A stretch of 64,000 bases of DNA from Candidatus Enterousia sp. (GCA_045114635.1 JBGUKY010000017.1:4687-68686), one strand, 5' to 3'. Counted from the first letter of the stretch, positions 14,853 through 33,503 are shown. A program made the numbers and translations. The notes: generated by a model not told the origin, from the sequence alone.

Positions 14853-14942
14853 GGATGGTTGGCAGAGCGGTCGAATGCGGCGGTCTTGAAAACCGTTGAC
14901 GGGGCAACTCGTCCGGGGGTTCGAATCCCTCACCATCCGCCA
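14853..14942 (+). tRNA. tRNA-Ser(UGA), long variable arm, encoded CCA
   Basis: Acceptor GGATGGT/ACCATCC, anticodon loop CTTGAAA, T-arm GGTTCGAATCC. Confidence 0.9.
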
Positions 14943-14943
14943 G
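14924..14943 (+). repeat. attL core (3' end of tRNA-Ser)
   Basis: Identical to 32548-32567. Confidence 0.8.
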
Positions 14944-14950
14944 GAATATT

Positions 14951-15175: not shown

Positions 15176-16621
15176 TTGGATAATTTGATTAAACCCAAAG
15201 TATTTATTTCTTATAGTTGGTCTAACAAAGAATATGAAAAAAGAATTATGGGAATAGTTGATGCATTAAGAGATGCCGGCATAGATACGGTTTTTGACAA
15301 ATATAATTTAAAAGAAGGCGCAGACCTGAATGTGTTTATGGAAAAAATTGTTAATGATGCTAGTATAACCAAGGTATTAATTTTTTGCGACAAACAGTAC
15401 ACAGAAAAAGCAGATAACAGAAAAGGCGGTGCTGGAACCGAGACATTGATTATATCTCCAAAAGTTTATAATGATACCGATCCGGCCGGAGAAAATAAAA
15501 AATTCATCCCTATAGTCATGGAAAAAGACACAGAAACCGGAGAACCGTATATCCCTATTTATATGACCAGTCGCAAATATTTTGATTTTACAAAACCAAA
15601 TTTTCCTGACGAATTTGAAAAACTTGTAAGGTTTCTATATGGACAATCTGAATATAGAGAGCCGGCTTTGGGACAAGTTCCGTCATATGTCACGGATTTT
15701 AAAAGACCTTATTTTGGCACCACTACAAGAAAAGAGCTTGCAATAAATGCCTTAAAAGAAGAGAAACTATCGGTTTTAAGGTATTGTGAAGATTTCTTTT
15801 CTAAAGTGTATGAGACATTGGATGGTTTTATTATTGATACAGACAAAGAAAAAGTTGATGAGGTAGACGAAGTTGTTTGGAATCATGTTAATGATTTATT
15901 GCCGTTAAGCAGAGATTGTATAGATGTTTTGGAAACAATGATTACTTGCAACAAAAACGAATCTACTGTTAATTGTATCCATAATTTTTTAGAAAAATTA
16001 TTAACATATCGAGAAAAAGCAAAAGGAAACAGACGAATAGATTACCAATCTGATCATTTTCATTTCTTTGTTTATTATTTGTACATGAATTTAGTTAAAT
16101 TTTTAATAACGAAAAATAATTTTGAATTATTAAAACATTTTTTACATAATTATTATATTCGTAATAAATATGTCAATTCAAAATTACAGAATTTCTCCAC
16201 TTTCTATCCGAACACAAGAGCATTTGAAGTACGTAAATCAAAATTACAACTCAATAGACGATCTTTATTGGCAGATCTTTTAAAACAAGGTTGTAAAGAT
16301 GATGAAATAGAAATGGATAATATAATGCAGGCAGACTTATTATTAAAAATGTATGCTTGTAAGGAAGAAAAAAACGAAAGAATTTTTTGGTATCCTGTGT
16401 CTTTGGTATATGCAGAAATGCGAGAACAACCTTTCGAATTGTTTGTTCGTGCAGAGTCAAAAGAATTCTTTAATAACACATTGGGTGTATTAGGATTTAA
16501 TCGGGAAAATTTGGAAAATATCAAAAAACAGCTTTCTGAATTAAGTAGATATAGTTATCATCTTGGTTGGATAGAACCATTACAATTATCCAATATTGAT
16601 AATCTTGCAACAAAAGATTAG
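15176..16621 (+). CDS. TIR/SEFIR-like domain protein with ~340-aa uncharacterised helical C-terminal domain
   Basis: KVFISYSWSNKEYEKRI..VLIFCDKQYTEKADNRKGGAGTE is a bacterial TIR-like layout. TTG start with an AGGAG RBS 7 nt upstream. Confidence 0.75.
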   Translation: MDNLIKPKVFISYSWSNKEYEKRIMGIVDALRDAGIDTVFDKYNLKEGADLNVFMEKIVNDASITKVLIFCDKQYTEKADNRKGGAGTETLIISPKVYNDTDPAGENKKFIPIVMEKDTETGEPYIPIYMTSRKYFDFTKPNFPDEFEKLVRFLYGQSEYREPALGQVPSYVTDFKRPYFGTTTRKELAINALKEEKLSVLRYCEDFFSKVYETLDGFIIDTDKEKVDEVDEVVWNHVNDLLPLSRDCIDVLETMITCNKNESTVNCIHNFLEKLLTYREKAKGNRRIDYQSDHFHFFVYYLYMNLVKFLITKNNFELLKHFLHNYYIRNKYVNSKLQNFSTFYPNTRAFEVRKSKLQLNRRSLLADLLKQGCKDDEIEMDNIMQADLLLKMYACKEEKNERIFWYPVSLVYAEMREQPFELFVRAESKEFFNNTLGVLGFNRENLENIKKQLSELSRYSYHLGWIEPLQLSNIDNLATKD

Positions 16622-16633
16622 AAGCATTATTCA

Positions 16634-18223
16634 TTATATTGATGCTTCTTTCGCAATCTGAAACAAATCATTAACGTTGGTTTTTAATTTCCCAGACAAG
16701 ATTTGATTTATCTTGTCTGGGTTCATATACGCAATATTCAGATAACGATAAAACTGGCGAGATGAAGTGTGATTATTACGTATAACGTTATCTACATTGC
16801 CGTCTTGTTCATATAATTCACGATACTTCCATGCGGTGGCAAAAGCTTTTAGAATCAGATGGTTGTTGTCGGTGACATTTAGAACGCCATTTTTACCACG
16901 GTCGTATGTTGGGTTCACGTATTTTCGCAGAAACACTTTTTCAGTAATTGTTATGCTGTTGTCGCCAATTATATACTCCATTGGTTCTGTGTTTTGATTC
17001 ACATAATTTTCTGTTATAAAAGGTTGTAATTTGGCCGTATCGGTCGTAATTGTATAAATCAGATGCTCTTGAGAATATACAACTTTCTCAATCAGCGCTT
17101 GAATCAAATCGCGCTTTTGCGTATACGTCATATTTGCTATATCTATGCGTTTCAATATAGTGGCCAAATTGATGGGCAGATTAGACATATCACTATCCAG
17201 AAAATCCGTTATAGTTTTTATCGCTATTTCATCCACGCGTGTCGCGGTTAGATAGAACCCCTTAGTCGCGTAATAATACGCGGTCTTTTTGCCTTTACCA
17301 CTGGTGCGTTGGTTTATAAATTTCACACCATTGTGATTAAATAATTTGCCAGTCAATATATTTGGTGCTCGTGTACTCGGCGATTTGTTGTTGGAATTAT
17401 TAGCCAGCGCAATTTGGACACGATTAAATAGTTCTGTAGAAATAATCGGTTCGTGTTCACCTTTTGCGAAAGTGCCTTCTTTTTTATTTTCAATTTGACC
17501 GATGTAAACTTTATCCCGCAGAATGCGATGCATACTCATTTTAGCAATAGGATTGCCACCACGTATTTTTCGTTTATTGGTTTCCCACCGTTTGCCATAT
17601 ATACCATTTTGCCGTGCGTATTCAGTTAAATCATTCACAGATTGCAGTTCTAGATATTTTTCAAACAAATGTCGTACTTGTTCTGCTTCGGTTGGGTTTA
17701 CTACCAATTTTTTGTTTATCAGGTCGTAACCCAGCCGTGGCGCACCACCCATCCATAACCCCTTAGCCTTTGATGCGCGGATTTTATCACGCACACGTTC
17801 ACTTGATACTTCACGTTCGAACTGTGCGAATGATAACAGCATATTAAGTGTTAGTTTACCCATAGATGTACTGGTATCAAATGACTGGGTAATAGACACG
17901 AAATTGGCACCATATTTTTCAAAATATTTCATCATATTGTGGAAATCCAAGATTGAACGCGATAATCGATCAACCTTATACACTACCACTGTATTTACTA
18001 ACCCATGTGCCATATCATCCAACATTTGTTTTAATGCAGGCCGTTCCATAGTCCCGCCAGAAATCGCCGCATCACTGTAAGTCTTGTAATATTGCCAACC
18101 ATTAAACGATTGTGATGCTATATATGCCTTGCACGATTCTTCCTGGTTCTGCAAGGAATTAAACTCCTGTTCCAATCCGTGTTCAGTTGATTTGCGTGTA
18201 TAAATAGCGCATTTAATTGTCAT
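16634..18223 (-). CDS. Large serine recombinase
   Basis: CAIYTRKSTE..SLQNQ catalytic-Ser N-terminal resolvase domain, VYKVDRLSRS, and a long recombinase/zinc-beta-ribbon-type C-terminal extension (529 aa). Confidence 0.9.
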   Translation of the reverse strand: MTIKCAIYTRKSTEHGLEQEFNSLQNQEESCKAYIASQSFNGWQYYKTYSDAAISGGTMERPALKQMLDDMAHGLVNTVVVYKVDRLSRSILDFHNMMKYFEKYGANFVSITQSFDTSTSMGKLTLNMLLSFAQFEREVSSERVRDKIRASKAKGLWMGGAPRLGYDLINKKLVVNPTEAEQVRHLFEKYLELQSVNDLTEYARQNGIYGKRWETNKRKIRGGNPIAKMSMHRILRDKVYIGQIENKKEGTFAKGEHEPIISTELFNRVQIALANNSNNKSPSTRAPNILTGKLFNHNGVKFINQRTSGKGKKTAYYYATKGFYLTATRVDEIAIKTITDFLDSDMSNLPINLATILKRIDIANMTYTQKRDLIQALIEKVVYSQEHLIYTITTDTAKLQPFITENYVNQNTEPMEYIIGDNSITITEKVFLRKYVNPTYDRGKNGVLNVTDNNHLILKAFATAWKYRELYEQDGNVDNVIRNNHTSSRQFYRYLNIAYMNPDKINQILSGKLKTNVNDLFQIAKEASI

Positions 18224-18341: not shown

Positions 18342-18542
18342 ATGAAACTTTTTCTAATATTTATAACAAGAGTTTTTCTGACACTTGTTGCCTTTGGTGC
18401 TGCTGTGTTGGCTTTAATGATGTTTTCAGAAGATTTGTCTTATTTTCCTACTTGGATGACAATAATAGTATGTGCTTTAATTGTTGTATTTGTAGGCTGG
18501 CCACAAATTAAATGGTGGAAAAAATTTTTGAAAGAAGACTAA
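18342..18542 (+). CDS. Small two-TM membrane protein
   Basis: ORF with an AAGGA RBS and two hydrophobic segments. No homolog recognised. Confidence 0.35.
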   Translation: MKLFLIFITRVFLTLVAFGAAVLALMMFSEDLSYFPTWMTIIVCALIVVFVGWPQIKWWKKFLKED

Positions 18543-18970
18543 TCTGTTTTTTTGTTCACTCCAAAGAAAAAGTTGCCAGACATTTTCATGCCTGCAATCT
18601 TGGTTGCTACCGCCGACAATGTGGAATATTTATCGCCGTTATAAGAAAAACTGCCATCGTCGTTGACTAAGATGGTGTATTTTATCCCTTTGAAATATCT
18701 TGTTAAAATTGTGCCAGGAACGAAATTATACTTATTTGGACATGCATGGTCTAAACATTTTTCTGGATTATCCTTGTATTTTCGAATTTTTACCAAATAT
18801 TTATGTTCAATTCGAAGATTTAACCTATCGCATTGAATATAATACCAAAGTGACCGTATTTGCCGCTTGAATGGATATTGTGAATATTTGGCCCACAATC
18901 GCGCCCGTTCATCAAAGGACAAGGCTTTTAACTCGTTCAGCGTCTTTGGTAGGTTATCTTTATATGACAT
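18539..18970 (-). CDS. DUF2924-like protein (usual partner of phage large serine recombinases)
   Basis: Start moved to MSYKDNL (AAGGGG RBS). C-terminal FSYNGDKYSTLSAVATKIAGMKMSGNFFFG matches the DUF2924 pattern F.Y.G..Y.SLSA.A..ITG..W.G..FFG. Confidence 0.65.
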   Translation of the reverse strand: MSYKDNLPKTLNELKALSFDERARLWAKYSQYPFKRQIRSLWYYIQCDRLNLRIEHKYLVKIRKYKDNPEKCLDHACPNKYNFVPGTILTRYFKGIKYTILVNDDGSFSYNGDKYSTLSAVATKIAGMKMSGNFFFGVNKKTD

Positions 18971-19095
18971 ATTGACCCCTTTATAACATCGTCCAATTAC
19001 CGCTCTAAAGAAGCCAGAAGTCAAGTTAAATAAACCAATATAAGTAAAAAGTTTTTTGTATTGCGTAAAATTTATGAAATCCATATAATGAAATT

Positions 19096-21023: not shown

Positions 21024-21077
21024 ACACAGGTAAGGCAGAGGAAAGAAAGGAACAAAGACCGTGAAAACCGCAGAAAC

Positions 21078-21113
<36 letters not shown>

Positions 21114-21167
21114 GTAATCCTGCCTAGCAATTTTTGTGCGAACTGTTGTTCGTACTATGGATGAAAA

Positions 21168-21213
21168 ATCGACTGATGATGTTTAAAAGGCATCATTGGT
21201 CGATTTTTTTATT
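21168..21213 (+). terminator. Intrinsic-terminator-like hairpin inside the target gene leader
   Basis: ATCGACTGATGATG / CATCATTGGTCGAT 14-bp stem (2 G-U pairs), followed by TTTTTTTATTT and ending 26 nt before the ATG. Confidence 0.5.
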
Positions 21214-21238: not shown

Positions 21239-22537
21239 ATGAATAAAAAAATAATCTTAACCAGTTTTATCGCATTGGGCTTTGCGTGTCCAGCGATGGC
21301 GGAACCATCACATACTGATGAATTTCCGTCAAATGGTTTGATGCAAGAAGACTATACATATACAAATTCTGCCAATGAAACAAACATGGCGGGTGTATCT
21401 GGTCATAATGCCACGGTATATGCAAACGCACTTTATAGTAATGCTTCATATGCTGTTGTTGCTGGTGAATATTTGCCGGCAGACGCAGAAGTTGTTGCAA
21501 CATGTACTGCTGGTTCTTTCTGTCCGGGTGGCCAAAGTTATGGTTATAATGCAACAACAGCCCAAGGTATAACAGCGTGTTCTACAGTTGGTGATAATTC
21601 ATTTACTTTATCTGCGGCTGGTGCATCGGCAAATACAGATTGTTATAAAGCTTGTAATATAGCAAATATGGGCCAAGGTGGTTCAATTGCAGATATTCCA
21701 CACGCTGCATCATTAACAGGAAACGATTATTATGGAAACGGTACCGATACTTGTGAACCGGCAACTTGTGTAACAGGATGGCATGTTAAAGATGGTTTAA
21801 ATGTTGCAACAGAAATCGGTACTACAGCTGGTGTAAACAGTGCTTATGTAAATAATTCTGGAACATTTGGTGAAACAGATGCTAATTTCAGTTCTGGAAA
21901 TAATGGTGCGGCCTATTATGGATTAAGTACAAGTAATCATAACACGTGGGCTGTAGAATATGATGGCAAAGGTATAGTTGTTGGTCAAGGTCGTTGTTCT
22001 ACTCGTGGGGTAACAACACCATGGTATGAGACATATGATGAATCAACAGATAGTTATACAGTTCCATCTGATAACATTGTATCAAGTTTAACAGACGAAA
22101 CGGGTCAAACTGGTGCACAATATTGTTATTGTAATGTAACAGGATATAAAGCAAGCAGTAGCTCTGCTTTGCAAAGCTTGTCTTCTTCGTGGGTGTTCCG
22201 GAGCGTTTACGGCGACGCGTCGGATTGCGCTTCGGACTGCGCTTACGACTGTGCGGACAACATGCGTGACACGAGCTCGAGCAGCCTTGCGTTCCGTGGC
22301 GCGTTGCTCGGTTCTGTTGGCGCCTTGCCGGCGAGCTGTGAAGTTAATACAATTAACATTAGTTGGGATGGTGCAACCGCAGCTGCGGTCAGTGCTAATA
22401 ACGCCGCAAGCGTTACATACGGTGGCGATATCAGAACTCCTAAGTCCGCGATACATGTCAAAGGTAAAGTATTCGACGGTTGGGAATTCAGTACAACCGC
22501 ACCGGTCAGCCCGGTTACCGAACCGGTTCAACAATAA
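21239..22537 (+). CDS. DGR target protein: secreted, Cys-rich N-terminal region, C-type-lectin-like variable region, C-terminal Listeria-Bacteroides-repeat-like module
   Basis: Start at MNKKIILTSFIALGFACPAMA (GGAAGGA RBS). Contains the VR. The VR ends in ..LAFRGAL, like CLec/FGE-type VRs. The tail VTYGGDIRTPKSAIHVKGKVFDGWEF is Flg_new-like. Confidence 0.85.
   Translation: MNKKIILTSFIALGFACPAMAEPSHTDEFPSNGLMQEDYTYTNSANETNMAGVSGHNATVYANALYSNASYAVVAGEYLPADAEVVATCTAGSFCPGGQSYGYNATTAQGITACSTVGDNSFTLSAAGASANTDCYKACNIANMGQGGSIADIPHAASLTGNDYYGNGTDTCEPATCVTGWHVKDGLNVATEIGTTAGVNSAYVNNSGTFGETDANFSSGNNGAAYYGLSTSNHNTWAVEYDGKGIVVGQGRCSTRGVTTPWYETYDESTDSYTVPSDNIVSSLTDETGQTGAQYCYCNVTGYKASSSSALQSLSSSWVFRSVYGDASDCASDCAYDCADNMRDTSSSSLAFRGALLGSVGALPASCEVNTINISWDGATAAAVSANNAASVTYGGDIRTPKSAIHVKGKVFDGWEFSTTAPVSPVTEPVQQ
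22176..22325 (+). repeat. DGR variable repeat (VR)
   Basis: 150-nt match to 24087-24236. There are 15 internal mismatches and all fall at TR adenines. GC-rich relative to the flanks. Confidence 0.92.
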
Positions 22538-22548
22538 CGCGTTAAAAT

Positions 22549-22574
22549 GCCTGAACCACGAAAGTGGTTCAGGC
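22549..22574 (+). other. 11-bp GC-rich hairpin with GAAA tetraloop just after the target stop codon
   Basis: GCCTGAACCAC-GAAA-GTGGTTCAGGC with no T-tract after it. Confidence 0.6.
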
Positions 22575-22830
22575 CGTAATGCGTTCAACAAAATGCGTCA
22601 GCATTTTGTTGAAGAAAGGTTTGAAAGATATCGGGATATGTATTTTGTTTTCTCCGTTCAAGAAAAAATATCCCGATAGAGTTTTTTATGATTATGAAAC
22701 AACGATTCGTAATAATAAAAAGCTTTGATAACCAAAGCCGAATAACCAAGGAAAGAAAGGATATAGAAGAATAAATTCGAACCGAAACAATCAATAACTT
22801 CAAATTCAGTGTAGAAAAAATACTGAAAGG

Positions 22831-23436
22831 TTGTCAAGGGACGAATTAAAGGTGCGATTAAAATATACTGCATTTTTAACATTGATGTTTGCAACGGCAA
22901 AGGCTTTTGCCGGGGTGGATGGCGTTGTTATTTCAAACGAATTTCCATCCGACAAATTGATGTTGGAAAATCATGTATATAAAAATGCAGCGGTGTTTGA
23001 AAATCTTGGTGTGTATGATGGAACGGTTTATGCAATTGCCAGATACAGAGATGTTCCATCATATTGTGAGCCAGGATATTATTTACCGGAAAACACCACC
23101 GAATGTGTAATATGTGATGAAAATCATTATTGTGTTGGTGGTGAAAATGCAGTTATGTCGCCGTGTCCAGATGGATTGGTTTCACCTGTTGGAACAACGG
23201 TTGCAGATAATTGTGGTAAGATAATGCGTGTCGGTGAAGATAAGTTGTATTTAACACAAACACAACAAACCCACCCAGCATTAGCGGTAAAAATGGATGG
23301 CAAAATTTATTATGCCAAAACAACACCAGTATCAATGGGCGTAAAACCAATGAATATAAATACAACATATTCTTTGCGCACTATGATAGAAGGCACCGAA
23401 TATTCAATACACGATAATACTATTCCGGGAGAATAA
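22831..23436 (+). CDS. Secreted Cys-rich protein, paralog of the target N-terminal region (not diversified)
   Basis: NEFPSDKLMLENHVYKN and C..G.Y.P....C..C....YC.GG resemble DEFPSNGLMQEDYTYTN and C.AGSFCPGG in the target. The start is uncertain (TTG 22831 or GTG 22852). Confidence 0.55.
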   Translation: MSRDELKVRLKYTAFLTLMFATAKAFAGVDGVVISNEFPSDKLMLENHVYKNAAVFENLGVYDGTVYAIARYRDVPSYCEPGYYLPENTTECVICDENHYCVGGENAVMSPCPDGLVSPVGTTVADNCGKIMRVGEDKLYLTQTQQTHPALAVKMDGKIYYAKTTPVSMGVKPMNINTTYSLRTMIEGTEYSIHDNTIPGE

Positions 23437-23438
23437 TA

Positions 23439-24005
23439 ATGGTTAAAAAATTGGTTTGTTTTTTATCTGTTTTGGTTATTGGTTTATCCCAAAATGCTTT
23501 TGCGGTTCCAAGTGTGAAAAAGTTGGGAAATAATAATTTAACTTCTGCAAATGTTAAGCCTGTTATAAATACATCAAACGGAAACACTGATAATAAAATA
23601 AATAACAAAGCATCAATAGCAAAGGTTGCAAAAACACCAATTGCAAAAGTAACAACAGTTTCTTCTGCGACAAATGGTCGTATCCCAGCAATAACAGGGG
23701 TTAAATCTATCAATACAAAAAAGGTACCGGTTGTTGCAAATAATGATAGCGTAAATAAACCAAACACATCTGGAGTAGGCGAAGATAAATTTAATGAAAT
23801 TGTTGAAAGAATAGAAACACTGGAAACACAAAATGAAAATGCAATAACTGATGTAGTTGAAAATGAATCTGGGACTTATGTGACGGATGTTGCGGTTGAT
23901 GGAAATAAATTAAGTGTAAATAAAACCCGCCTGTTATACGCACCGGTTCGTAACGGAAACAGTGAAGAAATATCAGGTGACGCAGAAATATGGATAGTAA
24001 AATAG
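23439..24005 (+). CDS. Secreted protein, paralog of 13961-14704
   Basis: Signal peptide ..SQNAFA then VPSVKKLGNNN. Asn/Lys-rich linker, then IVERIETLETQNENAI coiled-coil-like segment. Confidence 0.6.
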   Translation: MVKKLVCFLSVLVIGLSQNAFAVPSVKKLGNNNLTSANVKPVINTSNGNTDNKINNKASIAKVAKTPIAKVTTVSSATNGRIPAITGVKSINTKKVPVVANNDSVNKPNTSGVGEDKFNEIVERIETLETQNENAITDVVENESGTYVTDVAVDGNKLSVNKTRLLYAPVRNGNSEEISGDAEIWIVK

Positions 24006-24086
24006 GGGGATAGAAAAGATTCCTAGAATAAAATCTGGGGATAGGTTGCATTGCCGGAAATCCAGTTGGGCGTAGTACTTGTCGGT

Positions 24087-24236
24087 GCTTGTCTTCTTCG
24101 TGGGTGTTCAAGAACGATAACAACGACGCGTCGAATTGCGCTTCGAACTGCGCTAACAACTGTGCGAACAACATGCGTGACACGAACTCGAACAACCTTG
24201 CGTTCCGTGGCGCGTTGCTCGGTTCTGTTGGCTCCT
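24087..24236 (+). repeat. DGR template repeat (TR)
   Basis: Non-coding copy of the VR. In the VR frame it carries 12 AAY codons (..KNDNNDASNCASNCANNCANNMRDTNSNN..). Lies 242 nt upstream of the accessory ORF and RT. Confidence 0.92.
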
Positions 24237-24403
24237 GGTGACAAAAGTTTTGCTGACCTGTGGGACAAAGTGTACAAACACTTTTCAGATGTGAAAGAGG
24301 CATCTGTTTTATAAATTGTGCCGTTTTGTAACTAAGGCGGGGTGATGTAACCTGTTTAGATGCGATGAAAAAAAGTTGCATCTCTACGAATACATTAAGC
24401 AGG

Positions 24404-24447
24404 GAACATCTGGGTTGGTAACCGTTCGGCGAAGACCCCGGATGTTC
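24404..24447 (+). other. Stem-loop in the TR-to-accessory-gene spacer
   Basis: GAACATCTGGG / CCCGGATGTTC 11-bp stem with a 22-nt loop. The stem sequence is nearly identical to the hairpin at 14951-14981. Confidence 0.5.
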
Positions 24448-24477
24448 GATTGTTAATAAAATGGAGAGAGAAAAACC

Positions 24478-24804
24478 ATGACCATTGATGAAATCAAGCG
24501 TTTGAATACTGATGCGCTTGAAAGCTTTTCGGTGTTTGCACATGATAAATTACCAATGCCTGGAAAGAAAAAGAGATTGGATGAAATCTTGGATAAGGTT
24601 ATTTCAGTGGTCGATTTCAGAATTACCAAATCTAACAAGCGTGAAAATTCTGACTGTTTACAAATTCAATTCGTTTTGGATAATGAAGTTTATGTTTTGT
24701 TTACTGGCAGTGTGGTTTTAATTGACCAAATACAATCTGTAAAAGAAAAATTGCCCTTTAAAACAACTATTGTAAAAATTGATAAATATTATTCTTTCTC
24801 GTAA
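24478..24804 (+). CDS. Small DGR-associated accessory ORF in the avd position, not Avd-like by eye
   Basis: 108 aa with a GGAGAGAG RBS. It ends 7 nt before the RT start. Beta-rich-looking segment VVDFRITKSNKRENSDCLQIQFVLDNEVYVLFTGSVVL. Confidence 0.55.
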   Translation: MTIDEIKRLNTDALESFSVFAHDKLPMPGKKKRLDEILDKVISVVDFRITKSNKRENSDCLQIQFVLDNEVYVLFTGSVVLIDQIQSVKEKLPFKTTIVKIDKYYSFS

Positions 24805-24810
24805 AAATTT

Positions 24811-25842
24811 ATGAAACGGTATAAACATCTTTGGGATGATTTTATTTCTATGGAAAATTTGGAATTAGCTGCGAGAAAAGCAGTTAAATCTAAGAAATCA
24901 AGATGGCAATCCCGTGTCTTTGAAGCAAATAAGAAAGATTTCTTGCTTCAATTACAACAAATGTTAATTGATGGAAAATTTAATACTTCGGAATACAGAA
25001 TACGAAGAATATTTGAACCAAAAGAAAGATTGATTTATATTTTACCACTTTATCCGGACCATATTGTACATCATGCGTTAATAAATATTCTTGGACCGAT
25101 TTGGCAAAGTACTTTTATTCGTGATTCTTATGCTTGTATTCCAGGCAAAGGATTACACAAGGCATCTCATGCTATTATGCATTTTATTCGGCGTAATAAA
25201 TATGTTTTACAATGTGATATTCGTAAATTTTATCCGTCCATTAACCATGAATTTATGTTCAAAATTCTGAAAAAGAAAATTGCTGATAAAAGATTGTTGG
25301 ATGTTTTACATAATATTATTTGGTCGTGTGGTGGTGATTCTAATTTGCCAATTGGAAATCTGACTTCACAATGGATGGGCAATGTTTATTTGAATGAACT
25401 GGACCATTTTGTAAAAGAACAATTACATTGTAAAGATTATATTCGGTATTGTGATGATTTCTGTTTGTTCGCAAATGATAAAGAAATCTTGCGTGAATAT
25501 AAAAGAAAATTGGAAGTGTTTATCAATGAAAAATTAAAACTGATTTTTTCTAAGTCTGCAATATATCCAACATCTCGTGGAATCAGTTTTATTGGGTATC
25601 GTCACTTTAAGAAATTTATAATGTTGCGTAAATATGGTGCTAGTAAAATGCGAAGAAGAATTTTAAATATCGCAATTCATAATGATACTTCTGAATGGGC
25701 TGTGGGGCAATTGGCTTCGTATCGTGGTTGGGCAAAATGGTGTTGCAGTTATAATTTTCTTATTGATTTATGTACGCAAGCAAGTTTGATATCACATGAC
25801 AGTGCAAGCTTTATTTATCACAAAATATTCAAAGACGAATAG
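24811..25842 (+). CDS. DGR-type reverse transcriptase
   Basis: RT motifs: QCDIRKFYPSINH, LPIGNLTSQWMGNVYLN (the [ILV]GxxxSQ hallmark of DGR RTs), YIRYCDDFCLF (YxDD), and SFIGYR. Confidence 0.92.
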   Translation: MKRYKHLWDDFISMENLELAARKAVKSKKSRWQSRVFEANKKDFLLQLQQMLIDGKFNTSEYRIRRIFEPKERLIYILPLYPDHIVHHALINILGPIWQSTFIRDSYACIPGKGLHKASHAIMHFIRRNKYVLQCDIRKFYPSINHEFMFKILKKKIADKRLLDVLHNIIWSCGGDSNLPIGNLTSQWMGNVYLNELDHFVKEQLHCKDYIRYCDDFCLFANDKEILREYKRKLEVFINEKLKLIFSKSAIYPTSRGISFIGYRHFKKFIMLRKYGASKMRRRILNIAIHNDTSEWAVGQLASYRGWAKWCCSYNFLIDLCTQASLISHDSASFIYHKIFKDE

Positions 25843-25853
25843 TGTGATAATTG

Positions 25854-27335
25854 TTAAAACATTCCCCTGCGACCACTGATGTGTTCGTTATCAATGTAAA
25901 TAATTCCTTGTGAAAAAGCATCGCATTGGTCTTTGAATACACTTCCTGGGAATGCCAATAATTCTTTTTCAAAATCTGGCCACCATGGTCCTGCATTGTT
26001 TGGAAATAATATCGTTCCTTCGGCAATTAAAGACGTTGTTGCTTCCAATCTGCTTTCTTTATCTCGTTCTGCTTTGATTCCAACAAATGGTGGCGAACCA
26101 AATACATGTGTTGATTTATAATCTCTGCCGACTTGTTGTATAAGTTGTGTACCAGACGAAGCGTCTTCTATCAACGTTTTTACATTACAATAACCAAACT
26201 TTGTTCGTGCCATATCTTCATATTTTTTTTGAAACCCTAAAACTTTATCGTGTAATTCTGGGTATTCTAATCTTGCACGGAATACTTCCATTAAATATAC
26301 TCTGCGTTCTGATTTGTAATATTCTACCCCAAACACACAACATGCAGAATATGCGCAATTATCACCTAATTTTGACGCTGTGTCCCACGATATGTAAATG
26401 TGTATTATTTTGGGTGGCAATTCTTGGTAATAATGCATCCAATCTGATTTCACTAAACCGCCTTCCGTTGGTATAGGTTTTTGTTGGTACTGTCCTGCAA
26501 AAGAATAAGGTCCCAATGCATTGCGCAAACCATCAAGTGTTTCTGGCCCTTCACGATCTGGATGCAGTAATTCGTCTTTTTTACGTTTTATTACACGCAT
26601 TTCGCCGGTATATTTATTTGGGAAAGACCAATCTTCATCTTCTTCCGCAATCAATGGCATTCGTATAAGTTTATAACCTGCATCTAGTTCCGTTAAAAAA
26701 CCGGTAAAATCCATTAAATGTAAACGCTGCATTATTACCAATATACGACCAGTATTTTTATTATTAAGACGTGAATAAAGTGTGCTTTTATACCAATTGT
26801 TTGGTCTTGCACGCAATGTGTCAGAACGAGCTTCATCTGCCTTTAATGGATCGTCTATGATAATCCAATCACCACCTATACCTGTTAATGGTCCGCCAAC
26901 AGATGTTGCAAAACGTCCACCATTACGCGTAGTTCCAAAATCTGTCGTTGAACAATGTTTGGGATCTATTACTGTACGCGGAAACAGTTCTTTATACCAA
27001 CCGCTTGTCATAACTATTTTACAATCATTGGATAACTTTTTTACTAAGTCATCACCATAACTGACACAAATAATTCTTGTTGATGGGTCAAGACCCAACA
27101 AAAATGCTGGTAATGCAACTGAACAGATGATGGATTTCATATTACGTGGCGGAATATTTATTATCAACTTGGTGTTTTTGCCATCAATCATCTGTTCTAT
27201 TTCATTACAAATCACATCTACATGCCAATTATCCATGTATATGTCTTTACCTGAAACTGTATTAAATACTTTTATACAAAATGCTTTAAAATCAGTTCTC
27301 AGTATTGCTGGTAAGATGTTTTGATTTAAATCCAT
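25854..27335 (-). CDS. Phage terminase large subunit
   Basis: LIINIPPRNMKS Walker A-like region, WIIIDDPLKADEA Walker B, and a C-terminal nuclease region ending ..DQCDAFSQG. Confidence 0.85.
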   Translation of the reverse strand: MDLNQNILPAILRTDFKAFCIKVFNTVSGKDIYMDNWHVDVICNEIEQMIDGKNTKLIINIPPRNMKSIICSVALPAFLLGLDPSTRIICVSYGDDLVKKLSNDCKIVMTSGWYKELFPRTVIDPKHCSTTDFGTTRNGGRFATSVGGPLTGIGGDWIIIDDPLKADEARSDTLRARPNNWYKSTLYSRLNNKNTGRILVIMQRLHLMDFTGFLTELDAGYKLIRMPLIAEEDEDWSFPNKYTGEMRVIKRKKDELLHPDREGPETLDGLRNALGPYSFAGQYQQKPIPTEGGLVKSDWMHYYQELPPKIIHIYISWDTASKLGDNCAYSACCVFGVEYYKSERRVYLMEVFRARLEYPELHDKVLGFQKKYEDMARTKFGYCNVKTLIEDASSGTQLIQQVGRDYKSTHVFGSPPFVGIKAERDKESRLEATTSLIAEGTILFPNNAGPWWPDFEKELLAFPGSVFKDQCDAFSQGIIYIDNEHISGRRGMF

Positions 27336-27693
27336 TGTTTTCCATCCATGTTTCCAATACCTGTTTATCGTTTGTATTTAATTGTTTATTTAACGCTTCG
27401 CGTTCAGCTTCTTTTTCATCCATTTTCAGCATATGTGGCATCATAAAATCTATTGCTTTCATATCGCCGGAAACCGCCTGATTACTTGCTTGCAATAAAA
27501 TTGCCTGTTGTTTAGTAATTTGTATTGAGCCCTTATCAGTAGTATTTACTGTGACTTTCTGATTCAATATGTCACGTAATATACTGTATGTGTTTCTGGA
27601 TCCTTTCTTGCGACCTTTTGGATTACCAGATTGGCCGGGCTTAAATCGAGTTGATTTAGGTGGGCGACCATATCCTATTTCATAATCAGACAT
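27292..27693 (-). CDS. DUF5681-like protein (terminase small subunit position)
   Basis: IGYGRPPKSTRFKPGQSGNPKGRKKGSRN is the DUF5681 signature. Overlaps the terL start. Confidence 0.6.
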   Translation of the reverse strand: MSDYEIGYGRPPKSTRFKPGQSGNPKGRKKGSRNTYSILRDILNQKVTVNTTDKGSIQITKQQAILLQASNQAVSGDMKAIDFMMPHMLKMDEKEAEREALNKQLNTNDKQVLETWMENNGFKSKHLTSNTEN

Positions 27694-29005
27694 TGTTACC
27701 CCCTTTGAGTTCTTTCAACAATTCATTGTATGTTTTACCCGTGAATACATTTAACGCATCTATTCCGAATAAATTCTGAAAACGTCGTATTGTTGTATCA
27801 ATGTATAACGGTTCATATTCTATGCCATAACAAATACGCCCAGATTGCTGGCATGCAATCAAAGTGCTGCCTGAACCAAGAAAACAATCCAATACAATAT
27901 CGCCACGTTTAGATACATCCAAGATCGCATCTTTTAACATCTCTACGGGCTTAACCGTCGGGTGCATAATGCCATCTTGTTTATGTTTACCAAAAGCATT
28001 TACACCAGCATATTGCCATACATTGGTTCTGTATCGTCCGTACTTACCAAGTTGTACATTGTTATTATGTGATTCTTTGCCATTTTGGAATATAAAACAC
28101 AGTTCATGTTGACTTCTGTATAAACTGCCCATGCCACCAGACGTTTTTACCCATACACACATATTGATGAATTTATCAAATATGTCCTTGCCTGCGACTG
28201 TGATTTCCAAAACATGACGCCAATCCATAAAGTTATAATGCAAAGAACCATCGTTGGAATACTGTTTACACAGTGCGAAGTTATTCATCAAAAACTTTGT
28301 GAATTCATCCATAGTCATTTCACCAGATGCCATTGCAAATTCTTTGTGTTTAATAGTGCCAGAACCACATACATGACCATCTATTTTGACGTTGTATGGC
28401 GGGTCTTGCAGAATCATATCGGCCTTTTTACCATCAAACAATTTTACAAATGCGTCTGGATTTAAACTGTCACCACAAATAATGCGATGTTTGTCCAATT
28501 GCCATATATCACCAGGTTTGGATATGATTTCATCTTCAGGGATAAATGGCACAGCATTGGTTTTCTGATTGATTGGTTTTATATCTGTAAAGCTAACTAT
28601 AGAATCCAATTCAGCATCATTAAATCCAATATCTTGGATTACAAAGTTATCGTCCAGGCATATTTTTTCTAAATCTTTGATTTCAAGGCTTAGCAATTCT
28701 TTATTCCAGCCGCCGTTTTCAGCAATCTTATTATCTGCCAATCTATAAGCGCGTTTTTGCGTATCCGTTAAATGCGAAAGCTTTATCGTTGGAACGGTTT
28801 CCAGATTCATTGCCTGGGCGGCCATAAAACGACCGTGCCCCGCGATAATTTCATTGTTTTCATCGATTAATATTGGATTATTAAAACCAAATTTGGTTAT
28901 AGAAGATATGATTTGTTGTACCTGAGATTCAGGATGTGTTTTTGCGTTATGTTCATAACCATGAATATCCGCAACTTTCAAATTTTCAAATACTAGTGCA
29001 CCCAT
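27686..29005 (-). CDS. ParB-like nuclease domain fused to N6-adenine/N4-cytosine DNA methyltransferase
   Basis: Start moved to MGALVFENL (AGGAGG RBS). NPILIDENNEIIAGHGR ParB-N motif, LQDPPYN catalytic motif, and the C-terminal FLGSGSTLIA SAM motif. Confidence 0.85.
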   Translation of the reverse strand: MGALVFENLKVADIHGYEHNAKTHPESQVQQIISSITKFGFNNPILIDENNEIIAGHGRFMAAQAMNLETVPTIKLSHLTDTQKRAYRLADNKIAENGGWNKELLSLEIKDLEKICLDDNFVIQDIGFNDAELDSIVSFTDIKPINQKTNAVPFIPEDEIISKPGDIWQLDKHRIICGDSLNPDAFVKLFDGKKADMILQDPPYNVKIDGHVCGSGTIKHKEFAMASGEMTMDEFTKFLMNNFALCKQYSNDGSLHYNFMDWRHVLEITVAGKDIFDKFINMCVWVKTSGGMGSLYRSQHELCFIFQNGKESHNNNVQLGKYGRYRTNVWQYAGVNAFGKHKQDGIMHPTVKPVEMLKDAILDVSKRGDIVLDCFLGSGSTLIACQQSGRICYGIEYEPLYIDTTIRRFQNLFGIDALNVFTGKTYNELLKELKGGNNV

Positions 29006-29314
29006 TGTACACCTCCTTTTCCTTCTTTCTCCCCCTTTTCTCTCCGTATTAAACCTATTAAACAAAAAAGGAAGCGCTGTATTTAGCAATCTTCCTTTCC
29101 TTATATATTTAAAATAGCAAAAATCACGATTCGGTGCAAGAAAGTCCAAAAATATTTTTTTAGATTCGTTTTTTTGTTGAAAACGGTTTTTATAAAATAA
29201 AAAAATTATACGTAATTAATACTTTTATTATAAAAATATTCTTGTATTTACATTTGTTTTTCATAAAATTCAAAAATAAAAAATTATTAATTAAACACAA
29301 TACAGGATTATCAT

Positions 29315-30751
29315 ATGCAAATTACACGTATAAAATTCACCAATCACCCAATATTATCAAATCTTGAATTGAACTTTTGTGATGAACAAGGCAAACCTTA
29401 TAATACAGTTATATTTGCTGGTGAAAATGGTTGTGGCAAAACAACTATACTTAAGTTCATAAGTGATTTATTTAAAAATATGCATGTTTTTCTTAACCAA
29501 AATTTAGATTTCGATTTCTCTATAGATTTTTATTTATCACAACAAGAACAAGATAATATAAAAAATACATTGCGCACAGCAAATATACAATTTGATAACA
29601 CAAAATTATCTGAAGCAATAAATATAACATATAATCATAATGCTCCAAATGTTTATGAACGAGTTACAAGCAATTTTCTTAATCAGACACATTTTACAGC
29701 AATAGTATCTCACATTTATGTATGTTTTTATTCTGTATACTTAAATACAGATATAAATTTTCAAACAGAAAACATAAAATCTATAAGCTCAACAGGATTG
29801 GATAGGGATTTAAATAAAATAAGAAATATGCAACCATGGACTATCGCAAATGATTTAAAACAGTTATTTATAGACATATATGCTCAGGACAGTGAAGAAC
29901 TTAGTTTGTGGTGCAAAGAACATCCTGGCAGTGCACCTTCAACAGATATTATATCAAAACGAATTTCAAGATTTACTGATGCTTTTAGTATTATGTTTAA
30001 AAATATATTCTTTAAAAACATCCAAACAATTAACGAAACAAAACAAGTTGTGTTTACCAAACAAGAAAAAGACGTTTTGATAGACGATCTTAGTTCCGGT
30101 GAAAAACAAATTGTGTTTAGGGGAAGTTATGTTCTTAGAGATATAAGTTCTATAAAAAGCGAAGTTCTATTAATAGATGAACCCGAAATAAGTATGCATC
30201 CAAAATGGCAAAACAAAATATTAGATTTTTATAAACAACTTATTATCGATGAAACAGGCAATCAATCATCGCAATTGTTTGTAGCGACACATTCAGAACA
30301 TATTATAAAAAACGCATATCAAAAAGGTGATTTGATTTTAGTTTTATCTAATTCAGGTTCCGAAATCAACGTAAAACCTATTCAAGATTTAAAAACATTC
30401 AGTTTTAGCCCGACATATCCAGAAATAAAATATTTCGCGTTCAATATATCATCAATAGAATTCCATGACGAACTATATGGTTATATTAAAGAAATGAATA
30501 ACCTTGTACAAGAAAAAGATGTAGAAAATTTCTTTCTTCAAAAAAGGGAAAAACAAACTAAAAAATGGGCAAGATTGAAAAATAATATTTTTAACACCCC
30601 AGAAGAAGTGACTCTTATGACATATATACGCAATGTTATTCATCATCCTGAAGCAGCTAACAAAACAGATAACCCTTTGGGAAAATGTAATTTCACAGAT
30701 GAAGAATTGGCACAATCTATTGGAATTATGTTAGATATACTCAAAAGTTAA
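29315..30751 (+). CDS. ABC/SMC-like ATPase (AAA_15/AAA_21-type) with uncharacterised C-terminal domain
   Basis: Walker A GENGCGKTT, signature-like LSSGEKQ, Walker B LLIDEPEISMHP, and the H-loop ATHSEH. Confidence 0.75.
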   Translation: MQITRIKFTNHPILSNLELNFCDEQGKPYNTVIFAGENGCGKTTILKFISDLFKNMHVFLNQNLDFDFSIDFYLSQQEQDNIKNTLRTANIQFDNTKLSEAINITYNHNAPNVYERVTSNFLNQTHFTAIVSHIYVCFYSVYLNTDINFQTENIKSISSTGLDRDLNKIRNMQPWTIANDLKQLFIDIYAQDSEELSLWCKEHPGSAPSTDIISKRISRFTDAFSIMFKNIFFKNIQTINETKQVVFTKQEKDVLIDDLSSGEKQIVFRGSYVLRDISSIKSEVLLIDEPEISMHPKWQNKILDFYKQLIIDETGNQSSQLFVATHSEHIIKNAYQKGDLILVLSNSGSEINVKPIQDLKTFSFSPTYPEIKYFAFNISSIEFHDELYGYIKEMNNLVQEKDVENFFLQKREKQTKKWARLKNNIFNTPEEVTLMTYIRNVIHHPEAANKTDNPLGKCNFTDEELAQSIGIMLDILKS

Positions 30752-32097
30752 TGTTCCATATTTAACAACCATTCCAAAACATTCAAACGTTTTATACCGT
30801 TTTGTTCGCCAGAACCATAATCCATAGTTAACAAGTATTTTGGATAATTATCTTTTATTTGTTCCAATGACGCATATTCGCGTTTAGCAACATCTTCATT
30901 ATTCAAAACACCCCATGCAACTTGATAATATTCTACCTGTCCACCCGGCTTAGTTGCCACGAAATCGACTTCTATTGTTTTGCGTTCAGCCTTGCCTTCT
31001 TCGTTTCTTACTTGTGTTTGTATTTTGCCCACAGACACATTATATCCACGACGTATCAATTCAAGATATACAACATTTTCCAGTATACGACCAGCATCTG
31101 TGTCTTTATCACCCAATAATGCATAACGCAAACCTGCATCAACAACGTAATATTTTGCATTGCCACTTAATATTTTTTTACCTTTGATATCGTATCTTTC
31201 ACATTTATACATTAAAAAGCTGTCTAACAATCCTTTGATGTATATATCTATTGTTGGTGCTGATATATTATAACCAGCATCTTTTAAACAGCGTTCTATA
31301 TTACGCACAGAGGTATCACGCCCTATATTATCAAACAAATATCTTGTCACGACATCTAATTTATTGTCGCTGGCTATATTAAAACGTTTTACAATGTCTT
31401 TCTGTATAGTATTTTGGAACACGGTATCCATCAGATAATCTGTTATAACCTGTTTATCATCCATGTGCACCAATTTTTGCACCTGTGGAAAGCCACTTTC
31501 GTGGATATAATCTTCATATATAGCATAAGGATTACGATGTTTTTCTAAATCTTCGCGTTTCATTATTTGATGATTAAAGCTTTGGCTGTAAAAACTAAAA
31601 TATTCTGAAAACGATAATGGTTGCATTTTTATTTCAACATAACGTCCGCCAAAAGAATTTGCTATATCACTAGAAAACATATATGCATTAGACCCTGTTA
31701 AATATACATCTATGTTGCCACGCATACGTAATCCATTAGCTACCATCTGCCAATTTTCTACAAGTTGAACCTCATCTATGAATACATAATATGTCTTGTT
31801 ATCTTTGACTTTTGATAATATATAGTCCAATAATGTTTGATGATTTTCTAATAAACCATCAGAATTCAGTTTCAAACCCATTTTGCCTGTCAAAACCGGA
31901 TCTTCCAGATTTATAGATATTATATGGTCACTAGTGGCAACGTTATCAAACAAAAGATCCAAACCAAACAATTCTAATAATTTAGATTTTCCGCAACGAC
32001 GAACCCCTGTCACTATTTTTACAAGATCTGTTTGTCCAAGCCAGTTTTTCAACTTTCTTGTATAATCCGGGCGAGATATAAGTGTTTCTGTAGCCAT
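30748..32097 (-). CDS. AAA+ ATPase with DUF4143-type C-terminal domain
   Basis: Walker A GVRRCGKSKLL, Walker B YVFIDEVQ, and a C-terminal DUF4143-like region (..EVDFVA..). Confidence 0.8.
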   Translation of the reverse strand: MATETLISRPDYTRKLKNWLGQTDLVKIVTGVRRCGKSKLLELFGLDLLFDNVATSDHIISINLEDPVLTGKMGLKLNSDGLLENHQTLLDYILSKVKDNKTYYVFIDEVQLVENWQMVANGLRMRGNIDVYLTGSNAYMFSSDIANSFGGRYVEIKMQPLSFSEYFSFYSQSFNHQIMKREDLEKHRNPYAIYEDYIHESGFPQVQKLVHMDDKQVITDYLMDTVFQNTIQKDIVKRFNIASDNKLDVVTRYLFDNIGRDTSVRNIERCLKDAGYNISAPTIDIYIKGLLDSFLMYKCERYDIKGKKILSGNAKYYVVDAGLRYALLGDKDTDAGRILENVVYLELIRRGYNVSVGKIQTQVRNEEGKAERKTIEVDFVATKPGGQVEYYQVAWGVLNNEDVAKREYASLEQIKDNYPKYLLTMDYGSGEQNGIKRLNVLEWLLNMEH

Positions 32098-32547: not shown

Positions 32548-32567
32548 AATCCCTCACCATCCGCCAG
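32548..32567 (+). repeat. attR core (displaced tRNA-Ser 3' end)
   Basis: Identical to 14924-14943 and followed by what appears to be the original tRNA terminator. Confidence 0.8.
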
Positions 32568-32574
32568 TAATAAA

Positions 32575-32678: not shown

Positions 32679-33503
32679 TTATATATTCTTTTTACGATAT
32701 GCGCAATATAAAACAGTTATCCCGATTACAAATACAAGCGCAGAAAGCAACGTTCCCATCGTCAATCCCCAACTGGTAAGAAAGCCAATTTGTGCATCTG
32801 GCTGACGGAATTGTTCACAGAATATTCTGAATACCGCATAAAGAATACAAAAGATTCCTGATAATGCGCCGGTATGTTTGCGCAAATTCGTTTTACAATA
32901 AAGTAACATCATAACTGTGAATAAAACAACACCTTCAAGCGCGAATTCGTAAAGTGGGCTTGGGTGACGCGGAATATCTGTTTGTCCAACAAATACTACA
33001 CCCAACGGCGAATTAGTTGTGCGCCCCATTATTTCCATATTTATAAAATTTGCTATACGTCCCAATCCCAAACCTATCGGCGAAAGCACAGCCAATATAT
33101 CCAATATCTTGAAAGAATTCCTAACAATTGAACCCGATTCGAATTTCTGATTCTTTACAAATAAAAATGTGGTTGCTATCGCACCAAGAAATCCACCATG
33201 AAAACTCATCCCACCATGCCAAAGTGCGAATATTTCCAATGGATTATGTAAAAAGAACGGCAAATTATAAAACAACACATATCCCAAACGCCCACCTATT
33301 ATTGTTCCCAATACAAAATAACTTAAAAAATCATCCATCTGCTTTTTCGATAATGGTATTTCGGTGTTTTTCCTGCTTGTGAAAAATTTCATCAAAAAAA
33401 AGCCCGCTGTGAACGCAACTATATACGCCAGCGCATACCACCGAATCGGTAAACCGAATACAGAAAACGCAACTGGGTTGATTGGATTTATGATTATTGC
33501 CAT
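32679..33503 (-). CDS. lgt: Prolipoprotein diacylglyceryl transferase
   Basis: RWYALAYIVAF, GGRLGYVLFYN, WHGGMSFHGG, GRIANFINMEIMGR and RHPSPLYEFALEG. Confidence 0.92.
   Translation of the reverse strand: MAIIINPINPVAFSVFGLPIRWYALAYIVAFTAGFFLMKFFTSRKNTEIPLSKKQMDDFLSYFVLGTIIGGRLGYVLFYNLPFFLHNPLEIFALWHGGMSFHGGFLGAIATTFLFVKNQKFESGSIVRNSFKILDILAVLSPIGLGLGRIANFINMEIMGRTTNSPLGVVFVGQTDIPRHPSPLYEFALEGVVLFTVMMLLYCKTNLRKHTGALSGIFCILYAVFRIFCEQFRQPDAQIGFLTSWGLTMGTLLSALVFVIGITVLYCAYRKKNI

Follow-up and report, generated by a model that had tools for sequence, protein, structure and literature searches.

A probably active diversity-generating retroelement on a tRNA-Ser island of Candidatus Enterousia, with a candidate accessory protein distinct from Avd, covarying RNA around the template repeat and an internal, apparently non-lectin variable repeat

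To our knowledge, no natural system other than diversity-generating retroelements (DGRs) hypermutates proteins in a targeted way in prokaryotes, and efforts to engineer DGRs for directed evolution are under way. Their mechanism is known almost entirely from the element of Bordetella phage BPP-1, in which the accessory protein Avd is essential. Avd is a helical-bundle protein of ~128 aa that forms a pentameric barrel, and it is present in about 74% of DGRs and is not universal. Four classes of accessory protein have been published, Avd, HRDC, MSL and CH1, with HRDC proteins being helical like Avd, CH1 proteins acidic and 160-169 aa long and MSL proteins MutS-like, and a variant mechanism was proposed for the avd-less DGRs of architecture A, or 'Lineage 3' (Wu et al., 2018; PMC5758913). 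Here, we characterized a DGR cassette in a window of 64,000 nt from Candidatus Enterousia sp. (GCA_045114635.1 JBGUKY010000017.1:4687-68686), which was analysed as one strand with coordinates counted from its first letter. The cassette is a genuine DGR, and we consider it probable, at roughly 0.85, that it is complete, resides on a tRNA-Ser island of its host and works as proposed below. As a DGR it is of a known kind; what is new is an accessory family other than Avd, a strongly supported structured RNA flanking the template repeat (TR), and an internal, apparently non-lectin variable repeat (VR). The cassette comprises the following features.

21239..22537, + strand: DGR target gene, 432 aa, secreted and Cys-rich, with a signal peptide that ends AMA and is followed by EP, and a Flg_new-like C-terminal domain 3' of the VR
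22176..22325, + strand: VR, residues ~313-362 of the target
22285..22321, + strand: 3' segment of the VR, 37 nt long, G+C-rich and lacking adenine, with the same sequence as TR 24196-24232
24087..24236, + strand: TR, non-coding, with 12 AAY codons and 31 adenines that are confined to codon positions 1 and 2
24237..24447, + strand: predicted structured spacer RNA (RNAalifold, 23 loci)
24478..24804, + strand: ORF108, 108 aa, between the TR spacer and the reverse transcriptase; a conserved, putative non-Avd DGR accessory protein
24811..25842, + strand: DGR reverse transcriptase (RT), 343 aa, with IGNLTSQ and YCDD motifs

The element shares with that of BPP-1 (mtd-avd-TR-brt) the adenine-specific flow of information from TR to VR, an RT of the same clade with the IGxxxSQ motif and equivalents of residues R74 and I181, and an adenine-free, G+C-rich 3' end of the repeats. 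In contrast to BPP-1, it has no Avd match and encodes instead a 108-aa protein with a predicted oligonucleotide/oligosaccharide-binding (OB)-fold-like structure, and its genes are ordered target-(two open reading frames, ORFs)-TR-spacer-ORF108-RT. Its target is a secreted cellular protein rather than a phage tail fibre, and its VR is internal, shows no detectable C-type-lectin fold and is followed by no significant hairpin.

The two 150-nt repeats aligned without gaps and differed at 16 positions, 15 of which were TR adenines (11 A>G, 3 A>T and 1 A>C). Exact realignment thus confirmed the original prediction of 15 internal mismatches confined to adenines and affecting about half of the ~31 present, the substituted fraction being 48%. 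The probability of such a restriction arising by chance was ~2e-12 (hypergeometric). A repeat search independently found the same single direct pair (89% identity), and no second VR or other copy of the TR occurred in the window. When read in the target frame, TR adenines at codon positions 1, 2 and 3 numbered 15, 16 and 0, respectively, and the theoretical number of protein variants was ~1.4e18. The 12 AAY codons and the VR and TR translations given previously were correct. The accompanying claim of stop-free variation held for those AAY codons alone but not for the whole TR, in which a single stop-capable codon, AAG, could mutate to TAG. The sole non-adenine mismatch, T>G at TR 24233/VR 22322, lies directly after the 37-nt adenine-free segment, which is a candidate homing segment resembling the IMH element (short for 'initiation of mutagenic homing'). 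The same T/G difference was present in four related loci (L008, L010, L015 and L022), and just past the shared repeat all Enterousia-clade TRs read TCCT while their VRs carry G or A. This recurrence would fit a functional TR/VR boundary distinction, in keeping with the IMH/IMH* difference anticipated at this edge.

Relatives of the RT were collected by scanning one genome per species, with identity taken from the best aligned segment, which yielded 53 loci with an RT of 50-81% identity. Nearly all were in metagenome-assembled genomes (MAGs) of Candidatus Enterousia or unclassified Alphaproteobacteria, and three of those MAGs had two RT loci each. Self-comparison revealed adenine-biased TR/VR pairs in more than 30 related loci. 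Among the 23 that were tabulated, 292 of 310 TR/VR mismatches fell at TR adenines, and a mean of 49% of TR adenines (range 29-68%) was substituted. Both this mean and the 48% of the window match the density of ~50% published for active DGRs of Bordetella and Bacteroides (PMC11601372). Two short contigs with an Enterousia-type RT (50-60% identity) and an ORF108 homologue (58-64% identity) came from MAGs labelled Treponema (L038) and Muribaculaceae (L041), and they may reflect mis-binning or horizontal transfer.

The best solved relative of the RT, matching over its full length, was the bRT of Bordetella phage (PDB 8ub7, E 2e-48). The next solved relatives were group II-like and retron-type RTs with E 5e-16 or worse, so that bRT was favoured over any of these by 32 orders of magnitude. 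DGR RTs carry the signature [I/V/L]GxxxSQ, and R74 and I181 of bRT promote adenine mutagenesis (PMC7826257). The IGNLTSQ of the Enterousia RT aligns to IGSLTSQ of bRT, its catalytic motif is YCDD, and it retains both residues that correspond to R74 and I181. The RT was also matched by PHROG 1423 (reverse transcriptase, E 4e-99), whereas group II, retron and DRT models of NCBIfam matched it only far below their cut-offs. On the basis of these homology searches the RT can be assigned to the DGR clade, and not to retrons or group II introns, which agrees with the earlier reading of LPIGNLTSQ and YCDD at 24811-25842. When cassette DNA was compared with phages, only short stretches of the RT gene matched, with 68-71% identity to crAss-like phages, and a local hidden Markov model (HMM) of ORF108 had no match in the regions around the RT genes of two such phages.

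The 240-nt spacer from TR to ORF108 was highly conserved across loci whose TRs differ. RNAalifold analysis of 23 loci predicted seven helices with 37 pairs, 18 of which showed compensatory double changes, and 97.8% of cells were paired. In 500 column shuffles, neither the paired fraction nor the count of covarying pairs nor the covariation score of the real alignment was ever reached, and sliding the pairing partners by 1-3 columns as a control left 3-5 covarying pairs. When the region upstream of the TR was searched for pairing with the spacer, one strong result emerged, a long-range duplex of 9 bp that is paired in 97% of cells and shows 16 extra pair types among the 23 loci. The predicted elements are as follows.

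24047..24055, + strand: 5' arm of the long-range duplex, TGCATTGCC, pairing with 24341-24349
24341-24349: 3' arm of the long-range duplex, GGTGATGTA
24257-61/24399-403, 24267-73/24278-84, 24286-91/24301-06, 24320-22/24336-38, 24404-13/24437-47 and 24421-23/24428-30: spacer helices
24339-41/24351-53: weaker predicted local helix, which competes with the 3' arm of the long-range duplex

Since the two arms of the duplex flank the TR, the repeat would be enclosed by it. The strong covariation indicates that the TR is probably embedded in a structured RNA of ~400 nt, and this covarying RNA sets the boundaries of constructs for reconstitution. No Rfam family was found in or around the TR, either at gathering thresholds or at E <= 1. 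One spacer hairpin (24286-24306, CAGATG...CATCTG followed by TTTT) is conserved and has a terminator-like score, and it could attenuate read-through from the TR into ORF108 and the RT.

The gene that follows this spacer, ORF108, had been missed as a conserved accessory gene in the original prediction. It is small, basic, cassette-encoded and adjoins the RT, in which respects its resemblance to Avd is purely functional. Its pI is 7.8, with a family mean of 8.4 +/- 0.7. ORF108 had no match in Pfam, NCBIfam or PHROGs, and comparison with all PDB sequences, using either the single sequence or a 61-sequence profile, gave nothing significant and no match to the bRT-Avd entries. Similarly, none of the 20 island ORFs of 75-230 aa matched the Pfam Avd family, even at E <= 1. 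An AlphaFold2 (AF2) model built with 61 homologues (pLDDT 89.7) had the order beta1-beta2-beta3-helix-beta4-beta5 after a short N-terminal segment, which is the element order of the OB-fold, with its helix between strands 3 and 4, and is unlike the helical bundle of Avd. The best Foldseek matches, to HIN-200, RPA, SSB and domain II of RuvBL2, were weak (E 0.047-0.3, TM 0.36-0.50). ORF108 is therefore predicted, from the model, to be an OB-fold-like beta-barrel. By size (~95-110 aa), charge (mean pI 8.4) and fold it falls outside the four named accessory classes (Wu et al., 2018; PMC5758913), and it could be one of the tentative PAG1-4 genes of the same study.

Of the 53 related loci, ~51 have ORF108 directly upstream of the RT, with 51-82% identity, so that its conservation equals that of the RT. 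When 1.84 billion representative proteins were searched with a profile, 826 clusters matched at E <= 1e-3, of which 318 reached E <= 1e-10, and nearly all family members were 95-110 aa long. In IMG/VR, 153 stretches of viral contigs encoded a homologue. Eighty of these were analysed, and 73 contained a DGR-type RT and 60 an adenine-biased TR/VR pair. The order in most viral contigs was VR-TR-RT-ORF108, compared to TR-ORF108-RT in Enterousia loci, and six viral contigs had VR-ORF108-TR-RT, in which ORF108 occupies the classical avd position. The domain was also fused to the C-terminus of the RT in three cluster representatives (P0262, P0338 and P0334) and in two loci, L054 and L055, whose RT ORFs scored E 1.7e-9 and 5e-4 by local hmmsearch; these are a Prevotellaceae-named and an unclassified-bacterium locus, and their RTs are only 28% identical to that of the window. 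One of the latter two had no separate accessory ORF between VR and TR. Homologues were encoded directly 3' of the RT in the archaeal virus ANMV-1 (AJP62065.1, annotated 'hypothetical protein') and a Methanosarcinales virus, and gene calls placed one just downstream of the RT in three more phage-like contigs. Two of these three homologues overlap the RT stop codon by 8 nt, which suggests translational coupling, and one of these two elements has an Mtd-like target. One 233-aa protein (P0258) consisted of two tandem ORF108-like domains behind an acidic N-terminal segment.

The combination of shuffled gene positions with constant linkage across domains of life, down to low RT identity, and with fusions is the signature of a functional RT partner. 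Homologues were labelled 'hypothetical' in every source and had no Pfam domain, and by these comparisons ORF108 appears to represent a widespread, unnamed family that is not Avd. From its fold class, linkage and fusions, we infer that the protein may bind the RT and the spacer RNA or cDNA. The DGR of ANMV-1 (Paul et al., 2015; KP703175) resembles the Enterousia element in encoding an ORF108 homologue (40% identity), which follows the RT directly. That element differs in its order, target-TR-RT-ORF108, and in its tail-fibre-like target with a C-terminal VR. No Avd was detected by homology in its annotation, and the figure of the paper marks an 'Avd' ORF. How the approximately one quarter of DGRs that lack Avd might work is a question for which ORF108 is a concrete and testable candidate.

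The target of the Enterousia DGR belongs to a family of more than 150 members with no Pfam match except Flg_new. A signal peptide was found, as expected for the secreted protein that had been predicted, and the target is presumably a surface ligand-binding protein. VRs are normally C-terminal, an arrangement that lets cis elements lie between genes (Roux et al., 2021; PMC8144416). In this target, however, the VR is internal, with 70 codons separating its end from the stop codon. A low-confidence linker follows it, and then a 60-aa C-terminal domain that matches Flg_new in 15 of 62 homologues. The AF2 model had a mean pLDDT of 82, rising to 88-96 across the VR, where a strand (318-323) and two helices (327-343 and 347-358) were predicted. 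The TR-encoded sequence NCAS-NCAN-NCAN-NM has a four-residue period, which provides independent, sequence-level support for a helix. On the first helix, invariant C330, C334 and C338 and the alanines lie on one side, and the variable, Asn-templated residues 329, 333, 336/337 and 340/341 lie opposite. Among the 62 homologues, entropy was 3.23 bits at adenine-templated positions versus 1.60 bits at other VR positions and 1.59 bits in the rest of the protein (p = 4e-8), an excess indicating that the family has diversified at these positions over evolutionary time.

A C-type-lectin or FGE fold had been suggested for this region, and the search for one was negative. Foldseek gave no match with E < 0.9 in PDB or BFVD, the presence of solved DGR variable proteins in the PDB library being unverified, and no PDB sequence match was obtained with single sequences or profiles. 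No lectin-type Pfam domain was found in the 62 family members. When compared by hhalign with two C-terminal viral VR families of ORF108-linked DGRs, the target profile had a probability of 0.1%, as opposed to 72% for those two with each other; these controls have no Pfam or PDB match themselves and stand for typical C-terminal VR families only, not for positively labelled C-type lectins. The VR scaffold is thus apparently non-lectin, as modelled.

Based on these observations, we propose that a ~400-nt RNA consisting of an upstream segment, the TR and the structured spacer would be transcribed, and that the long-range duplex 24047-55/24341-49 and the local helices would fold this RNA around the TR. 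The RT, most likely in complex with ORF108, which would take the place that Avd holds in the Bordetella phage element, would copy the TR into cDNA and misincorporate opposite adenines. The cDNA would then replace VR 22176-22325 of the secreted target, with the adenine-free 37-nt 3' segment serving as homing homology. For priming, we can only infer the mechanism. Eighteen positions would be recoded in this way, located in a loop, on one face of the helix stapled by three invariant cysteines and in the inter-helix loop, giving ~1e18 variants in theory. Judged from its sequence, the DGR is probably active at present. Several results weigh against this proposal. The A-to-N degenerate pattern of the whole VR/TR had no match in JGI metagenomes, and look-ups with exact proteins retrieved only the fragmented Logan assembly of the source sample SRR25030098 (L056, L057 and L058), which breaks inside the VR and inside the TR; these breaks are uninformative on heterogeneity, since the shared 37-nt stretch alone explains them. 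A hairpin or cruciform downstream of the VR was not significant in the window (z -0.43), clear hairpins being present 3' of the VR in several related loci. Furthermore, VR and TR are 1.7 kb apart (three ORFs' worth of DNA), the OB-fold call for ORF108 is drawn from an AF2 model and weak Foldseek matches, and ORF108 could have a regulatory role, or one that follows cDNA synthesis, instead of substituting for Avd.

One alternative, in which the repeats arose by ordinary duplication or form a gene-conversion tract and the RT is that of a retron, group II intron or defence system, is refuted by the adenine specificity and the class of the RT. The NCBIfam models that match the RT are of group II, retron and DRT types, and TIR and AAA_15 genes of a defence-like kind are present on the island, but the adenine bias recurs in dozens of related loci in addition to its low chance probability. 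A retron or group II identity of the RT was rejected because of the far better bRT match and because IGxxxSQ stands in place of QGxxxSP. We regard it as unlikely that the cassette is a fossil, in which the VR was diversified in the past and the differences are now frozen. The lack of a match in JGI metagenomes could be read in this way, as could the termination in this assembly of an (AC)16 leader upstream of the target and the resemblance of the island to a degraded prophage or satellite, with terL, DUF5681 and ParB-MTase as its only phage-like genes. Nevertheless, all ORFs are intact, the catalytic and mutagenesis residues of the RT are conserved and the flanking RNA structure is intact, while the proportion of substituted adenines is as expected after recent homing. 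Decay would also add non-adenine changes, and the only such change in 150 nt is a conserved boundary difference. It is more improbable still that ORF108 is merely a passenger gene of phages and islands with no part in mutagenic retrohoming. The protein has no named family or significant structural match, its proposed role is drawn from fold class, linkage and fusions, and its position relative to the RT varies (upstream, downstream or between VR and TR). However, the linkage holds from 81% to 28% RT identity while the surrounding genes differ, and it spans Alphaproteobacteria, Bacteroidota and both bacterial and archaeal viruses. At least five fusions to the RT C-terminus, conservation equal to that of the RT and the ORF overlaps suggestive of translational coupling also argue against a passenger.

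A further possibility, which we find doubtful yet worth serious attention, is that the VR domain is a highly divergent C-type-lectin fold and that its two predicted helices are a modelling artefact. The VR has an invariant W at its start and an invariant F-R ~34 residues later, a spacing that we take to be reminiscent of lectin-type VRs. The viral control families likewise lack Pfam and PDB matches, which shows that sequence methods are weak here. In addition, annotated VRs were systematically found to be of C-type-lectin fold and the unannotated ones to be probably new variants of it (Roux et al., 2021; PMC8144416), so that the same would be expected of this domain. On the other side are the high pLDDT across the VR, the lack of a Foldseek match (subject to the library content noted above), the contrast between the hhalign values, and the NCAS-NCAN-NCAN period, which puts Cys/Ala and variable Asn residues on opposite helix faces. 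We consider the odds about even that two propositions hold jointly: that ORF108 represents an unrecognised, OB-fold-like accessory class replacing Avd in a branch of DGRs, and that Enterousia VRs are carried on a non-lectin, Cys-stapled helical hairpin. If so, the branch would extend from the genomes of Enterousia to phage contigs in their hundreds, to ANMV-1 and other archaeal viruses and to the RT fusions of Bacteroidota, and many DGRs classed as lacking an accessory gene would in fact have one. Should a helical, non-lectin scaffold for display be confirmed, more kinds of fold than now known would prove able to tolerate massive variation, and the scaffold would be an exception to the view that VRs are always on C-type-lectin folds.

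The cassette lies within an island of 17.6 kb that is bounded by repeats of the tRNA-Ser end, and the integration into a tRNA gene that had been proposed is supported by the 25-nt repeat at both flanks. The other island features and the adjoining genes are listed below.

14853-14942: tRNA-Ser(tga) gene
14924..14948, + strand: attL-like repeat, the 3' end of tRNA-Ser(tga); 25-nt direct repeat with 96% identity to 32548-32572
15176-16621: TIR/SEFIR-domain protein
16634..18223, - strand: large serine recombinase (Pfam Resolvase + Recombinase, E 1e-39)
18539-19084: DUF2924 gene adjoining the serine recombinase
25854-29149, - strand: terminase large subunit (terL), DUF5681 and ParB-N6/N4 methyltransferase, the only phage-like island genes
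29315-30751: AAA_15/AAA_21 (AbiEii-like) ATPase
30748-32097: AAA_14/DUF4143 ATPase
32548..32572, + strand: attR-like repeat, which closes the island
32679-33503: lgt, a housekeeping gene 3' of the second repeat

The cargo also includes two glycosyltransferases, and the TIR/SEFIR protein and two AAA ATPases are possible anti-phage defence genes. There was no Pfam portal or capsid match among the island ORFs scanned, and the terminase is not beside the cassette in related DGR loci. Rather than a complete phage, the island resembles a satellite of phages or what is left of a degraded prophage. Its host belongs, in agreement with the original prediction, to a poorly characterised lineage, Candidatus Enterousia, Alphaproteobacteria of animal and human guts in the order Rs-D84, whose genomes are <1 Mb and lack the tricarboxylic acid cycle and a respiratory chain (PMC12306168). 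Very small genomes and DGRs that are common across the lineage are also features of candidate phyla radiation (CPR) bacteria and DPANN archaea, from which the present case differs in its host, a gut alphaproteobacterium, and in its accessory gene and target family. This echo of the CPR/DPANN episymbionts suggests a role for surface-protein diversification in dependent lifestyles.

Three further ORFs accompany the target gene in the window.

21061..21117, + strand: short leader ORF with (AC)16 at 21080-21111, ending at a stop in this assembly
22852..23436, + strand: orfB, a signal-peptide protein without a VR, its N-terminal part paralogous to the target N-terminus (~33-36% identity)
23439..24005, + strand: orfC, a 188-aa signal-peptide protein with no family match

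Neither orfB nor orfC had any significant match in Pfam, NCBIfam or PHROGs. The Cys-rich modules of orfB show faint similarity to ephrin-receptor or TNFR-like sequences, and the gene is found at the same place in L006-L012. Locus L015 contains one TR (2928-3066) and two VRs (2306-2444 and 9196-9320), which lie in different target genes ~7 kb apart and have 13/14 and 15/15 of their mismatches at adenines; it is a multi-target DGR of the same clade. In L015 (8488-9333) and L019 (188-1138), the target starts with the Flg_new-like domain in its N-terminal part and carries the Cys-stapled VR domain (SPSWVF..A.NCA..CA..CA...FR) at or near the C-terminus, compared to a Flg_new-like domain after the VR in the window, so domain order appears to be shuffled within the target superfamily.

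Three independent loci have, upstream of a DGR target gene, a conserved leader of the form 'MK[ATP]AE[ITL]' followed by (AC)14-16. For L015 and L019, the start codon of the target is separated from its signal peptide by the (AC)n tract, which is in frame and encodes the peptide YTHTHTH... The window leader ends VKTAETYTHTHTHTHTHG*, all three frames are closed before the target ATG at 21239, and the leader and this ATG are separated by a terminator-like hairpin of 20 bp (21164-21208). By its sequence, the layout of the leader and (AC)n tract in L015 and L019 would be that of slipped-strand translational phase variation. The Logan contigs L056-L058 also break exactly at the (AC)n tract, which may reflect length heterogeneity.

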